31,578 bases of DNA, taken from a virus (taxonomy: Duplodnaviria; Caudoviricetes). The stretch spans positions 1 through 31,578 of IMG/VR virus record IMGVR_UViG_3300020042_009391. One strand, written 5' to 3'. Shown here piece by piece: positions 15,339-25,698 of the stretch (within the stretch, counting starts at the first letter, position 1; every line of letters starts with the position of its first letter). The notes under the pieces were generated by a model. That model saw only the letters and a list, made by a program, of their open reading frames with translations, searched no databases and was not told the DNA's origin. The position numbers and the translations under genes are program-made.

Positions 15339-15954
15339 GACTGTAACTAAGAACGGAAAGAGGTATTATGACGTAGACGGTGATTACTTACCTTCAGTAA
15401 CCACCGTTCTTTCCTCCCTACCTAAACCCGGCCTTGATGCATGGAGGGAGAGGGTGGGGGCGGCTGAGGCTACTCGCATTATGACTGAGGCTGCCACCAG
15501 AGGCACCAAAGCTCACAAAATGTGGGAGGAGTATCTCCGGAATGATGTTGACTTTGCCAAAGGTATGATGCCTACATCCATCATGCTTTTTAAACAACTT
15601 CAGCCCTGGCTTGACCGGAACATTGATTTCCTGTATGGCAATGAGATCGCTTTGTTCTCCAAGTCTCTCCATACTGCTGGTAGGTGTGATGCCATTGCAT
15701 CCGTTAACGGACGTCCGGCAATCGTAGACTTCAAGACCTCTACCAATCCAAAGAAAGAGGAATGGATTGAGACATACTTTTACCAAGTTACGGCTTATGC
15801 TATGATGGTGGAGGAGATGTACGGTATAGTAGTAGAAGATGCATACATCCTGATTGCCGTCGCCGATGGGTCACCGCAGAGTTTCCCCATCAGAACCAGA
15901 CACTACAAAGAAACCGTAAAAGGCATATTTAATAGTTACATTACTAACAGTTGA
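15268..15954 (+). CDS. PD-(D/E)XK exonuclease
   Basis: PSVTTVL, RGTKAH, AGRCD...IVDFKTS, YQVTAYA; start codon uncertain. Confidence 0.88.
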   Translation: MLKTDLAIRQVPFKYQPLQEHDLRTVTKNGKRYYDVDGDYLPSVTTVLSSLPKPGLDAWRERVGAAEATRIMTEAATRGTKAHKMWEEYLRNDVDFAKGMMPTSIMLFKQLQPWLDRNIDFLYGNEIALFSKSLHTAGRCDAIASVNGRPAIVDFKTSTNPKKEEWIETYFYQVTAYAMMVEEMYGIVVEDAYILIAVADGSPQSFPIRTRHYKETVKGIFNSYITNS

Positions 15955-15979
15955 CTTAATTGCCGCATCCTTGTATAAT
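15951..15979 (+). promoter_or_regulatory. sigma70-like promoter
   Basis: TTGACT-17 nt-TATAAT. Confidence 0.8.
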
Positions 15980-16002
15980 TGAAAAACAATGAGAAGGATG
16001 CT

Positions 16003-16488
16003 ATGATAGCAACTGATAAATTAATGACCAAGCTCGATTTGAGTAAGGGAATGTCTGTTAATCGTGCCATCGTTCAGACTAGTGAGTATATTGATAGTCA
16101 ATCTGATCCCCTAAAGGTATCAAATTCTATCCTTAAGACTCTTGGTATGGTCGGGTATAGTTATACGGAACCATCGCAGGCAAAAATCATGGCCTTGGCC
16201 TCGATTGAGCAGGTTTTGGTTATGGATGTGTTTGATCCGAGTAAGGCTGAAGAGATAGCTATTACAAAGTTTGAGCGTATTCTAAAGAGAATGCCTTATG
16301 CAGTTAAAGGTACAGCAGTATCTAAGGCGCGTAAGGGATCGAAGAGAGATGTTGCTCGTCAGATCTACCTTGAAAATAGGGGTAAGGACGAGAAGGAAGT
16401 AATCGCAATAGTTGCCAAAGAAATGGAAGTAACTCTGCAAAACGCGTATACATACATATATTTGGTTAAAAAAGACTTAAAGTCGTAA
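16003..16488 (+). CDS. hypothetical protein with C-terminal HTH-like segment
   Basis: RBS AAGGA then ATG 16003; the TTG at 15979 overlaps the -10 box. Confidence 0.75.
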   Translation: MIATDKLMTKLDLSKGMSVNRAIVQTSEYIDSQSDPLKVSNSILKTLGMVGYSYTEPSQAKIMALASIEQVLVMDVFDPSKAEEIAITKFERILKRMPYAVKGTAVSKARKGSKRDVARQIYLENRGKDEKEVIAIVAKEMEVTLQNAYTYIYLVKKDLKS

Positions 16489-16493
16489 GATAA

Positions 16494-16522
16494 TTGACTT
16501 TTTTAGCTACATACAGTATAAT
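16494..16522 (+). promoter_or_regulatory. sigma70-like promoter of the tRNA array
   Basis: TTGACT-17 nt-TATAAT. Confidence 0.85.
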
Positions 16523-16550
16523 ACAAACATGTTAACGGTAAAAGGTATAA

Positions 16551-16646
16551 ATGCTCAGTTGTAATCAACGATCAAAATTAATTAGTTGGAATCATCTATC
16601 CGATGAGGCCGGCTATCCTTTTATCTCGGGGTCTTGTAAGTTGTAA
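16551..16646 (+). CDS. putative attenuator leader peptide MLSCNQRSKLISWNHLSDEAGYPFISGSCKL
   Basis: RBS AAAGGT 4 nt upstream; 31 codons; the last codons overlap the 5' strand of the antiterminator. Confidence 0.7.
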   Translation: MLSCNQRSKLISWNHLSDEAGYPFISGSCKL

Positions 16647-16673
16647 TCATACATCTTATCCCTACAAGACCCC
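16628..16673 (+). promoter_or_regulatory. putative antiterminator hairpin
   Basis: GGGGTCTTGTA (16628-16638) is the exact reverse complement of TACAAGACCCC (16663-16673), which overlaps the left arm of the terminator. Confidence 0.75.
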
Positions 16674-16701
16674 AGGACTAAACACCCTGGGGTTCTTTTT
16701 T
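16669..16701 (+). terminator. rho-independent terminator/attenuator upstream of the first tRNA
   Basis: ACCCCAGG-9 nt-CCTGGGGT followed by TCTTTTTT. Confidence 0.85.
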
Positions 16702-16728
16702 GCTCTTTAAAAATTTAAGCAGGTATAT

Positions 16729-16803
16729 GCACCTATCGTCTATCGGTTAGGACGCTGCCCTTTCAAGGCGGAAAGAGGAGTTCGATTCTCCTTAGGTGTA
16801 CCA
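16729..16803 (+). tRNA. tRNA-Glu(TTC)
   Basis: Cloverleaf, loop CT-TTC-AA, CCA. Confidence 0.93.
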
Positions 16804-16912
16804 TATTAAAGCATATTTCAGGTTGGGTTAGATTCGCGGTCTAACTATTTGGGTATTATGGACTAGATAATTACTAGCCCCGGTACTAAGATACGGAGTA
16901 TGTTTTAATATG
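16802..16912 (+). ncRNA. putative structured RNA following tRNA-Glu
   Basis: 18-bp closing stem CATATTAAAGCATATTTC/GGAGTATGTTTTAATATG with G-U pairs; internal hairpins GTTAGA/TCTAAC and CTAG/CTAG. Confidence 0.6.
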
Positions 16913-16918
16913 CTAGAT

Positions 16919-16994
16919 GTTGGTGTGACCCGAAAGGCTAGGGAGCAGATTGCAAATCTGTTTTATGCAGGTTCGAGTCCTGTCACCAACTCCA
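16919..16994 (+). tRNA. tRNA-Cys(GCA)
   Basis: Loop TT-GCA-AA, U73 discriminator, CCA. Confidence 0.92.
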
Positions 16995-17003
16995 CAAAGT
17001 TTC

Positions 17004-17096
17004 GGAGCAATTGATGCTATGGCGTGTGCATCCTCAGACTGTAAATCTGATCCCACCGGGTAAACATTCTTGGTTCGACTCCAAGTTGCTCCACCA
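17004..17096 (+). tRNA. tRNA-Tyr(GTA)
   Basis: Loop CT-GTA-AA, long variable region, CCA. Confidence 0.9.
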
Positions 17097-17099
17097 ATT

Positions 17100-17151
17100 T
17101 TTAAGGAGGGGCGTTACGAAAGTAACGTGCTGTGACTACAGCATCCTTAAA
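17100..17151 (+). ncRNA. putative small three-way-junction RNA
   Basis: TTTAAGGA/TCCTTAAA closing GCGTTAC-GAAA-GTAACGT and GCTGT-GACT-ACAGC. Confidence 0.5.
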
Positions 17152-17159
17152 TTTAATAT

Positions 17160-17235
17160 GGTCCTAAAGTGTTCATGGACGCACGACGGCTTGTCACGCC
17201 GTAAGAGTGGGGATCGTTACCCCCTAGGACCGCCA
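17160..17235 (+). tRNA. tRNA-Asp(GTC)
   Basis: Loop TT-GTC-AC, G73, CCA; atypical T-loop ATCGTTA. Confidence 0.88.
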
Positions 17236-17241
17236 AGTTAT

Positions 17242-17315
17242 ACCCCGTTAGCTCAAAGGTAGAGCACCCGGCTGATAACCGGGAGACAGAGGATCGTTAC
17301 CTCTACAGGGTACCA
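17242..17315 (+). tRNA. tRNA-Ile(GAT)
   Basis: Loop CT-GAT-AA, CCA; atypical T-loop ATCGTTA. Confidence 0.88.
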
Positions 17316-17323
17316 TAGTTTTT

Positions 17324-17400
17324 GCCCCGGTGACGGAATTGGTATACGTGTTGGTCTTAGAAGCCAAATTTTGAGAGTTCGAGTCTCTCCTGGGGCACCA
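17324..17400 (+). tRNA. tRNA-Leu(TAG)
   Basis: Loop CT-TAG-AA, A73, CCA; short variable loop. Confidence 0.88.
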
Positions 17401-17450
17401 AAACTCGCCTTGACTTATGGCGTATAATAGGAAAAGTAGTAAGTCAATCT

Positions 17451-17525
17451 GGGCTGTTAGTGATAATGGGAGCACGGGGGCTTTGCACGTCTCAGGTAAG
17501 AGTTCGATTCTCTTACGGTCCACCA
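17451..17525 (+). tRNA. tRNA-Ala(TGC)
   Basis: G3-U70 pair in GGGCTGT/ACGGTCC, loop TT-TGC-AC, CCA. Confidence 0.92.
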
Positions 17526-17532
17526 GAATTTT

Positions 17533-17607
17533 GGGTCCTTAGTAAAATGAATATTACACAACGCTACGAACGTTGAGGTGGGAGTTTGATTCTCTCAGGA
17601 CCCTCCA
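17533..17607 (+). tRNA. tRNA-Arg(ACG)
   Basis: Loop CT-ACG-AA, T-loop TTTGATT, CCA. Confidence 0.88.
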
Positions 17608-17615
17608 ATTTTTAT

Positions 17616-17689
17616 GCAGGTAAGCCCGAGGTGGGACGCCAGCCTTCCAAGCTGTGCTGAGTGGAGTTCGATTCTCCCTACCTGCTCCA
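17616..17689 (+). tRNA. tRNA-Gly(TCC)
   Basis: GCAGGTA/TACCTGC, loop CT-TCC-AA, U73, CCA; shrunken D-arm. Confidence 0.82.
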
Positions 17690-17690
17690 T

Positions 17691-17876
17691 TTATGAAGAC
17701 TTAGGTGAATCTTTGTCGATTTGTTTAAACTGTTCTGTTAGTATGAAGCAAGGTTTTACTGAATTGTAATCTTGTACGAATGTACGAGAGTTGGTCCAGT
17801 ACTCTTTCATCTCATTAGGCTTATCGCTCAATGCATACAGCAGCCGTAAATTTTCGTCGTCTTTATGAGTAAACAT
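17691..17876 (-). CDS. small hypothetical protein, antisense within the tRNA array
   Basis: MFTHKDDENLRLL... 61 aa exactly filling the Gly-Pro spacer; GATAAATA late-promoter-like motif just upstream on the - strand. Confidence 0.55.
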   Translation of the reverse strand: MFTHKDDENLRLLYALSDKPNEMKEYWTNSRTFVQDYNSVKPCFILTEQFKQIDKDSPKSS

Positions 17877-17888
17877 TTTTGTATTTAT

Positions 17889-17962
17889 CTCCGATTGGTG
17901 AAATGGTATCATCCGTGCTTTGGGAGCATGTGGCGCAAGTTCGATTCTTGCATCGGAGACCA
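17889..17962 (+). tRNA. tRNA-Pro(TGG)
   Basis: C1-G72, loop TT-TGG-GA, CCA. Confidence 0.92.
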
Positions 17963-17965
17963 GGT

Positions 17966-18182
17966 TTTGTAAGTGTCAGCAAGAGAACAACTCGCTATTC
18001 AGTATTCTTCGAAGGTACTGAATAGTAGAAGGTTAATGGGTTCAACTCCCACCTGCGGGAAACTGCAGAGGTCTGTAACGGAGACTATACTGGTTAAGTA
18101 TCCTAAGTGACGTACCTCATGCCGTCCGGACTAGTATAATCGGATAAATGGTTGCTATAATTGAGGGGCAGCAACTTACAAA
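17966..18182 (+). ncRNA. putative ~215-nt multi-stem structured RNA
   Basis: Closing stem TTTGTAAGT/ACTTACAAA; long TTCG-capped hairpin GCTATTCAGTAT/GTACTGAATAGT; TGGG-TTCAACT-CCCA; CTGCGG-GAAA-CTGCAG; no ORF in the track. Confidence 0.7.
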
Positions 18183-18191
18183 TTCAATTGT

Positions 18192-18265
18192 TGGGGGTTA
18201 GTGTAGCGGTAACACTACAGACTTTGACTCTGTCATCACTGGTTCGAACCCAGTACCCTCTGCCA
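18192..18265 (+). tRNA. tRNA-Gln(TTG)
   Basis: Loop CT-TTG-AC, G73, CCA. Confidence 0.92.
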
Positions 18266-18289
18266 GTTTTTTTATAAGGAGAGCCTGAT

Positions 18290-18421
18290 ATGGCTAGTGT
18301 CAAGAAGGGGACGTTAACTCGTTCACCACAATGGTGGAAACACCTAAAAGAGTATAAGAGGTTTTTCTGGAAATCGGAAAGACAGGCTTATAAGAAAGAA
18401 ATTAGCGGGGGTATAACTTAA
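18290..18421 (+). CDS. small basic Trp-rich protein (43 aa, absent from the ORF track)
   Basis: RBS TAAGGAG; MASVKKGTLTRSPQWWKHLKEYKRFFWKSERQAYKKEISGGIT*. Confidence 0.7.
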   Translation: MASVKKGTLTRSPQWWKHLKEYKRFFWKSERQAYKKEISGGIT

Positions 18422-18481
18422 CGGCTAAAGTAGTAGGCTTTTAACCTATTAATCAGAGTTCGATTCTCTGTACCCCTACCA
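18407..18481 (+). tRNA. tRNA-Lys(TTT)
   Basis: Loop CT-TTT-AA, CCA. Confidence 0.92.
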
Positions 18482-18575
18482 TATAAAAGCACATTATTAG
18501 TAACGCATGAGCAGGTTACTAACTTCCGCTGGTTACGTCAATCGTAAGTGGGTGAAGGATAGTGTGTTTCTATAT
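18481..18575 (+). ncRNA. putative structured RNA following tRNA-Lys
   Basis: Closing stem ATATAAAAGCACATTAT/ATAGTGTGTTTCTATAT; internal TTAGTAAC/GTTACTAA and TTACG/CGTAA. Confidence 0.6.
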
Positions 18576-18582
18576 AGTTTAT

Positions 18583-18657
18583 GTGGTTGTTAGTTTAGTG
18601 GTAAAACCGCGGGTTGTGATTCCGCTATCACGGGTTCGATTCCCGTACATCCACCCA
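18583..18657 (+). tRNA. tRNA-His(GTG)
   Basis: G-1:C73 pair, loop TT-GTG-AT, CCA. Confidence 0.92.
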
Positions 18658-18662
18658 AATTA

Positions 18663-18737
18663 GGATGATTAGCTCAGTGGTAGAGCACCGCCTTGACATG
18701 GCGAAGGTCAGTGGCTCGAATCCACTATCATCCACCA
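18663..18737 (+). tRNA. tRNA-Val(GAC)
   Basis: Loop TT-GAC-AT, T-loop CTCGAAT, CCA. Confidence 0.9.
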
Positions 18738-18741
18738 TTAT

Positions 18742-18817
18742 GCTGCTTTAGCTGATGTGGTCATAGCGCTGGTCTGAAGAACCAGTGAAAGAGGTTCGAT
18801 TCCTCTAGGCAGCACCA
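18742..18817 (+). tRNA. tRNA-Phe(GAA)
   Basis: Loop CT-GAA-GA, CCA. Confidence 0.92.
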
Positions 18818-18822
18818 AACTT

Positions 18823-18896
18823 GTCTCGATGGTGTAATGGCAGCATAGCAGTCTCCAAAACTGTTGGTTGGGGTTCGAGTCCCTATCGGGATGCCA
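18823..18896 (+). tRNA. tRNA-Trp(CCA)
   Basis: Loop CT-CCA-AA, G73, CCA. Confidence 0.92.
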
Positions 18897-18903
18897 AGTT
18901 TAT

Positions 18904-18979
18904 CTCTCTAAAGCGTTATCAGGTTGCGTACACGATTTGGGGTCGTGTGGTCCAGGTTCGAATCCTGGTAGGGAGACCA
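18904..18979 (+). tRNA. tRNA-Pro(TGG), second divergent copy
   Basis: CACGA-TT-TGG-GG-TCGTG, C1-G72, CCA. Confidence 0.9.
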
Positions 18980-18986
18980 AGTTAAT

Positions 18987-19078
18987 GGAAAGTAATGCAG
19001 CGGGGATGGTCCTGCGACTGGCCTTGAAAACCAGGTTCTCAGAAATGGGATGGGGTTCGACTCCTCTGCTTTCCGCCA
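18987..19078 (+). tRNA. tRNA-Ser(TGA)
   Basis: Loop CT-TGA-AA, long variable arm, G73, CCA. Confidence 0.9.
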
Positions 19079-19085
19079 ATTTTAG

Positions 19086-19114
19086 TTGCATTTGTTTTTG
19101 TATTAGTATATAAT
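19086..19114 (+). promoter_or_regulatory. internal sigma70-like promoter in the tRNA array
   Basis: TTGCAT-17 nt-TATAAT, 8 nt before tRNA-Ser(GCT). Confidence 0.65.
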
Positions 19115-24945: not shown

Positions 24946-25362
24946 ATGCAACAGTTCAGAGATTTTTTAACAGAAGCAATGAAGCAAACTAAACTGCCTG
25001 AGCCAAAGAAGGAGGCGTCAGGCAAGCCTAAAGTAATGAGCGGTAAAGAAACAATGGAGCATTTTCCGCGTCCGACGATGGATGCAGTGATGAAACATCC
25101 ACTATATCAACGTCACATTGCAGGAGCTGAACATAGAGGGTTTGCACATTCTGTTAATAAATCTTCTGTAGATAATAAATATGATACACATATTGTACAT
25201 GCTGTAACAGGTGGTACTGGTATCCGTCACAGGATTGACTTTCATATTGGGTTAAGTGGTCGCAAGGTAACTCATACCGAGCATTTAATTAACAAAGATA
25301 ATGAAAAGTATCCCGAAGGTCATCCAGCGGCTGGCCAAGTGAAGTGGAAACATATATCATAA
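24946..25362 (+). CDS. hypothetical protein with capsid-targeting-like N-terminus
   Basis: RBS GGAG, MQQFRDFLTEA; upstream CATAAATA. Confidence 0.75.
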   Translation: MQQFRDFLTEAMKQTKLPEPKKEASGKPKVMSGKETMEHFPRPTMDAVMKHPLYQRHIAGAEHRGFAHSVNKSSVDNKYDTHIVHAVTGGTGIRHRIDFHIGLSGRKVTHTEHLINKDNEKYPEGHPAAGQVKWKHIS

Positions 25363-25364
25363 GA

Positions 25365-25676
25365 GTTATTGCTGTATGAAGCAAAGAGAAAAGTGTTCTG
25401 GACGGGGGTGCGAATCCCCCCAGGTCCACCAAAAGCATGAGGTTCAATCACGGCGCCATCTGTTGTAGCAGAAGTGTAACGGACCAATCATCTACAATGC
25501 TTTTGATGGGCCTGACCTAGATTCGACAGGGCAACAAGTAACAGAGTGGACAGCACGGTAGGCGATGACCGTAAATCAAGCAAAAAACGTAAACGCAAAC
25601 GACGAACAGTTCGCATTAGCAGCCTAAACGCTGCTTAGGGTTTCGGTAGGTTTCCTCGTAACAGAATAACCTACCA
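25365..25676 (+). ncRNA. ssrA: circularly permuted (two-piece) tmRNA
   Basis: T-arm plus CAGGTCC-A-CCA (ends 25431) precedes GGGCCTG (starts 25508), forming an acceptor stem with G3-U70; GATTCGAC motif; tag ORF ANDEQFALAA* at 25595-25627; outer limits approximate. Confidence 0.92.
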
Positions 25677-25698
25677 CTTAACTTAAAGGAGTTTTATT

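Follow-up and report, generated by a model that had tools for sequence, protein, structure and literature searches.

Why phages carry tRNA genes has been debated for decades, with codon compensation on one side and replacement of depleted host tRNA on the other. The DNA considered here, the whole stretch of 31,578 nucleotides hereafter called the window, raises the related question of what decides when such genes are transcribed, as its tRNA array is preceded by a short ORF, a terminator and a helix that would compete with that terminator. From sequence and folding models these parts probably make up an attenuator of transcription that is coupled to the ribosome, with a leader that contains almost all amino acids and gates the tRNA array.

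The element and its phage

The 31.6-kb window is a contig of a T4-like phage, with PHROGs matches to primase, ssDNA-binding protein and PhoH, and its gp32 is most similar, at 56-58%, to those of cyanophages and Methylophilales phages. The tRNA genes of the contig number about 29 and, because its permuted tmRNA fits the betaproteobacterial Rfam model, we infer a betaproteobacterial host. The features relevant to what follows are:

15979..16488, plus strand: upstream gene for a 169-aa protein, outside the switch; anchor for an unbiased collection of relatives
16494..16522, plus strand: sigma-70-type promoter-like site TTGACT-17-TATAAT (promoter scan, 11/12)
16541..16546, plus strand: putative Shine-Dalgarno-like AAAGGT (sequence reading)
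16546-16553: presumed T4 late-promoter-like TATAAATG; overlaps the leader start codon
16551..16646, plus strand: leader ORF, 31 codons, 18 amino acids, 28 distinct codons; frame and stop kept in relatives
16551..16622, plus strand: predicted sensing zone, codons 1-24 (ribosome-mask walk), with all 18 amino acids inside
16628..16638, plus strand: 5' strand of the predicted antiterminator helix, within codons 26-30
16663..16673, plus strand: 3' strand of the antiterminator, its final 5 nt (ACCCC) common to the terminator stem
16669..16701, plus strand: intrinsic terminator-like hairpin (8 bp, 9-nt loop) with U-rich tail (sequence, folding)
16702..16713, plus strand: boxA-like element, the single match in the window with both strands searched
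16729..19074, plus strand: first tRNA block, 18 tRNA genes for 17 amino acids
19086..19114, plus strand: possible internal promoter TTGCAT-17-TATAAT, before tRNA-Ser(GCT), Asn, Thr, Met and Met
25331-25696: permuted tmRNA (Rfam match to the betaproteobacterial model)

A preliminary description of this DNA had reported the promoter, ribosome-binding site, ORF, 11-bp helix, shared ACCCC and terminator, and each is present at the coordinates it gave. The first tRNA does begin 28 nt after the terminator, and the counts of 18 of the 20 amino acids and 28 distinct codons in 31 are correct. The leader is without Val and without Thr; it has four Leu codons and six Ser residues spread over five distinct codons.

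Hexamers identical to those of the leader promoter-like site recur at 15951 and 20171, the site aligns in four relatives with variant hexamers, and the promoter scan of the window returned 23 sites overall, with 24.0 expected by chance. The terminator, with stem strands at 16669-76 and 16686-93 and a tail ending at 16701, is not listed by a consensus terminator scan of the window, the loop limit of which is 8 nt where the loop here has 9. The stability of the antiterminator hairpin has a z of -6.0, no shuffled sequence among 200 being equally stable. A generic scan for a short ORF followed by a hairpin and a T-tract has the leader as its sole plus-strand match in the 31.6 kb. The site at 16702, which we take to be boxA-like, is shared by 8 of 38 representatives, the window among them, where shuffling gives 0.03. 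Searches with Rfam cis-regulatory families (T-box, leader families, riboswitches) gave no match on the leader, either in the window (E up to 1) or in five relatives.

A helix sequestering the Shine-Dalgarno sequence, seen in the window fold, was dropped as a feature of the family: it reaches significance in one relative of 40, and in the window its P is 0.06. The 169-aa upstream protein is conserved and often encoded immediately 5' of the leader; it has no PHROG family and no GenBank phage match.

Predicted folding of the leader transcript

When a ribosome mask is walked along nascent RNA that is free to 16685, the antiterminator forms with the A-site at codons 2-24 and is lost from codon 25 on, where termination is predicted. 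All 18 amino acids have been used by codon 24, the last new one being Phe at codon 24 itself, and the final seven codons add none; in a post hoc test, with the cut-off taken from the folding, 18 amino acids within the first 24 codons has a P of 0.00025. A ribosome that passes codon 24 would thus melt the antiterminator and allow the terminator to form, and one stalled earlier, or no ribosome at all, would leave the antiterminator intact.

At equilibrium and with no ribosome the terminator is favoured once 16692 is free (P 0.74-0.99), aided by a local hairpin, 16628-16663, and the path barrier is only about 5.7 kcal/mol. Since the terminator wins at equilibrium, read-through rests on kinetics: the antiterminator would form first and occupy the lowest five pairs of the terminator stem for as long as polymerase takes to cross the U-tract. 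Among 40 representatives the antiterminator is predicted in untranslated nascent RNA in 39 (P>0.9), and with a ribosome at the stop it is predicted to be lost in 39. No protector (1:2) hairpin that would terminate an untranslated leader is predicted, and the untranslated default is predicted to be ON, by kinetics only. Of the trp/his/thr geometry originally proposed, the overlapping antiterminator and terminator at the ORF end are thus retained, the protector hairpin is not.

Compensatory changes in the antiterminator helix, which the preliminary description had suggested looking for, occur in relatives at helix positions 6 and 7, where C-G alternates with U-A (26/9 and 24/8 of 40). A duplex test of own versus swapped partners with a pattern-free spacer gave a weak result, the own partner being best in 1 of 40 with a mean z of -0.5.

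Occurrence in relatives

Relatives were gathered in two ways. With the upstream 169-aa protein as query, 36 rows were obtained, duplicates included and one of them truncated; leader and terminator are present in all 16 rows with a tRNA array just downstream, and within the first 420 nt the element is absent from all 16 rows without tRNAs and from all three with three tRNAs directly after the gene. With the terminator hairpin alone as the pattern, at least 120 stretches were matched, of which 80 with wide flanks were analysed. Leader and predicted antiterminator are present in 76 of these 80 viral loci, the ORF ending 23-31 nt upstream, and tRNAs follow in 70 of the 76, with the other six ending within 329 nt; of the four exceptions among the 80, three are without tRNAs and one is cut by a contig end. 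Terminator matches L116 and L119 have neither antiterminator nor tRNAs. Those two, together with L079 (200-aa ORF), L086 (contig edge) and exact duplicates, were left out before counts were made, and 40 viral loci with short flanks, which resemble the rest on inspection, stand outside the statistics. Both collections bear out the conserved order of ORF stop, antiterminator and terminator upstream of arrays, with the caveat that the relatives are not independent and that the terminator pattern selects one clade.

In bacterial genomes the terminator hairpin occurs in 16 loci, a short leader with all 20 amino acids in none, and searches for the leader in cultured phages gave matches to fragments of tRNAs or hairpins alone. 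In PHB09, vB_EcoM_Shy, phiWae14, DU_PP_V and one small spring phage, a generic scan along the tRNA strand of the stretches fetched around the tRNAs revealed no such leader, and the design is therefore not universal. Assembled RNA contigs (small shares) span the leader of relatives in three of four runs, but they extend upstream of the promoter too and, because of this, starts, ends and read-through are not readable from them.

Among the bacterial hairpins, that of L168, a 1957-nt contig of a Bacteroidota MAG, follows a 47-codon ORF with 14 amino acids and a G-run among its last codons, and has tRNAs directly downstream; it may be phage sequence that was misbinned, or else a narrower form of the design. 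In L165, L171, L173, L176 and L177 the same hairpin lies after a conserved motif and before similar ORFs of about 212 aa.

Selection on the amino-acid set

Taken alone, the window leader is only mildly exceptional, 18 of 20 amino acids in 31 codons having a P of 0.03-0.05 and 28 distinct codons one of 0.003-0.012. It stands at the reduced end of its cluster, whose members have 18-20 amino acids, L011 fitting all 20 into 31 codons; Lys or Cys is lost from the zone in close relatives of the window. Across the family the excess diversity anticipated against shuffled controls is pronounced. Of 75 distinct leaders, 59 have all 20 amino acids, where protein windows matched in length would give 2.3, and so have 28 of 40 representatives under 60% identity (1.3 expected); the two other reading frames have all 20 in 3 and 2 of 75. 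The full set has appeared ahead of the antiterminator in 59 of 75, with 14.6 expected on order shuffling, and by the ribosome walk it is complete before the switch point in 30 of 40 representatives.

The set persists although the residues move. Complete zones number 35 of 47 in the largest cluster, whereas column chimeras give 3.8 and two-parent crossovers 40%, and that persistence points to selection on the set. Sole copies of an amino acid change less often there (odds ratio 0.41), and among 65 changes of a sole copy there are 51 in which the residue is found at another place in the partner, though some of these may be alignment slippage. Trp occurs exactly once in 95% of leaders; in the large cluster its position is conserved, as is that of an Asp-Arg motif. 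The design is common to 17 clusters at 45% identity, which are mutually unalignable.

Codon choice seems to extend the same pattern to isoacceptors, a larger number of distinct groups being covered than in synonymous shuffles (z 7.5-9.9), with NNA and NNC preferred over NNT in four-codon boxes. For the window leader alone synonymous diversity is not above chance (P 0.26-0.79) and the codon preference is not significant.

The tRNA array and its match to the leader

The preliminary count of 17 amino acids with tRNAs before 19086 holds once tRNA-Gly (17616) and a Ser-type tRNA (18987), both resting on weak Rfam matches and relaxed ARAGORN settings, the Ser-type one with the anticodon TGA read by eye, are added to the 15 others. 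The promoter said to lie at 19086 is readable as TTGCAT-17-TATAAT, but it has a weak -35 match and was missed by the promoter scan. The absence of Thr from the leader had been tied to this promoter; that link is weak, with a P of about 0.2 in the window and with Asn contradicting it, as the leader has two Asn codons although tRNA-Asn is encoded beyond 19086. Conversely tRNA-Val is within the first block, yet Val is missing from the window leader. The tRNAs of that block read 13 of the 23 zone codons in the window.

A match between leader and array is suggested across relatives, whose arrays were viewed over 1-7 kb: of 30 instances of an amino acid missing from a leader, 21 go with the absence of a visible tRNA for it (9.5-11.3 expected), or 7 of 13 (p 0.02-0.07) when the three most reduced leaders are taken out. 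The reduced leaders of L059, L068 and L012 have 13-18 amino acids, and the missing residues mostly correspond to tRNAs unseen in the array; Asp, Glu and Tyr are absent from both leader and visible array of L059. The first block of the window contains two different tRNA-Pro(TGG) genes, at 17889 and 18904.

What the leader would sense

On the attenuator reading, slow decoding at almost any leader codon would let polymerase continue past the terminator and transcribe the tRNA array, the input presumably being the loss of any type of charged tRNA, by cleavage or decay of host tRNA in infection or by starvation. With one codon per amino acid the response would be mainly to severe loss. Beyond the terminator the boxA-like site is predicted to load Nus factors, which would carry transcription through the array and protect the untranslated tRNA transcript.

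The low sensitivity to be expected of single codons, the predicted ON state of the untranslated leader and the two amino acids missing in the window also fit a device that gauges translation of the leader as a whole, its occurrence or its rate (ribosome supply, antibiotics, shut-off), and not which tRNA is lacking; the Anabaena trn operon answers general translational stress (PMC8421152). Such a device leaves unexplained the selection for a full set, its completion before the switch point and the disappearance of amino acids that have no tRNA, and we consider it unlikely. Stalling by a nascent peptide together with a ligand or a phage or host factor, as in TnaC and SpeFL, is very unlikely: the sole Trp is unchanged in 50 of 50 pair comparisons and in the large cluster the distance of Asp and of Pro to the switch point varies little, but the distance from Trp to the boundary varies, at about 9-18 codons, Cys, His, Tyr and Phe move freely, and one design recurs over the 17 clusters.

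That the ORF is simply a small protein gene with an ordinary terminator, the tRNAs being transcribed from other promoters or by leak, would suit the equilibrium folding and the promoter-like site at 19086. It is highly improbable given an overlapping antiterminator in 76 of 80 loci (of at least 120 matches) that is missing in the tRNA-less L116 and L119, the lack of a leader where the array is absent, and the lack of peptide-level conservation between clusters. A developmental timer, in which TATAAATG would direct from over the start codon (16546) a late transcript that cannot be translated and so is read through, would suit the presence of the box in the window, L001, L026 and L027 and of late-promoter-like AT boxes close to many relatives' leaders. 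It is scarcely credible and an add-on at most, as the box is shared by those three relatives only and is absent from L009 and L011, and the amino-acid set is left unexplained.

The preferred reading, a general translation-sensing attenuator as first proposed, is supported as a prediction by the geometry, its conservation, the compensatory helix changes and the excess diversity. About as likely as not is a larger proposal, that such 'pangram' attenuators are widespread in uncultured T4-like and other large phages, where they would audit the host tRNA pool at the level of isoacceptors and turn on the phage array when any member is destroyed. They would then be inducible, generic sensors of anti-phage defences that target tRNA, and their codon content would evolve along with the array.

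Relation to known attenuators and tRNA operons

The element would work like leader-peptide attenuation in kind. As in the his, trp and phe leaders, a short ORF extends into an antiterminator, which is in competition with an intrinsic terminator, and a stall would lead to read-through: the leader ORF lies between promoter and first gene, the predicted helices overlap and exclude one another, and there are codons at which a stall frees the antiterminator. It differs in its tRNA-gene target, in having no codon run and in having no protector hairpin. Classical attenuators control amino-acid synthesis, whereas this one adjoins tRNA genes, and where his and trp leaders have a codon run for one to three amino acids, the phage leader has nearly all 20 with near one codon for each rare amino acid. 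The thr and ilv leaders are multivalent attenuators. In his, an untranslated leader terminates and single codon changes alter attenuation (PMC4046918); the untranslated phage leader, by contrast, is predicted to be ON. The uORF attenuators tnaC, speFL and mgtL/mgtC, in which ribosome position decides termination (PMC12360218), mostly involve Rho and specific ligands, whereas the phage element has an intrinsic terminator and conservation at the level of composition.

With the Anabaena trn operon the phage element would share a spare tRNA array that is on under translational stress. The Anabaena array is induced via a proposed repressor (PMC8421152), and TrcR has been tied to the control of this or long tRNA arrays (PMC10272220); repression there is at initiation, in contrast to the attenuation predicted here, and the words 'attenuat' and 'leader' are absent from PMC8421152. 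Phage tRNAs offset tRNA-cleaving defences, as T5 tRNA-Lys does against PARIS, in the accessible parts of PMC11464382 and PMC10264068, which describe no sensor or conditional expression of phage tRNAs. Such counter-defence supplies a likely reason for making tRNAs on demand. A literature search by titles and the openings of abstracts, in a collection that largely leaves out subscription journals, found no attenuation of tRNA genes and, in keeping with what was at first supposed, no description of such a switch.

If the proposal is true, a switch that restricts tRNA production to failures of decoding would favour the depletion view of phage tRNAs, in a form directly testable with a 230-nt reporter. 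Attenuation would then reach tRNA genes and viruses as well, translation capacity would have a general sensor that needs no protein, and the output of the switch could serve for discovering tRNA-cleaving defence systems.

Structured RNA within the array

Between tRNA-Glu and tRNA-Cys, 16804-16910 is a structured RNA with a 16-bp closing stem (z -2.7) and no Rfam match, and similar closing stems are seen in L001 and L002. Two further intergenic stretches of the array, 17975-18185 and 18482-18580, have apparent long closing stems and are also without an Rfam match. RNA contigs of relatives pile up at 17932-18185 in three of four RNA runs, and the two stretches may be conserved phage small RNAs.
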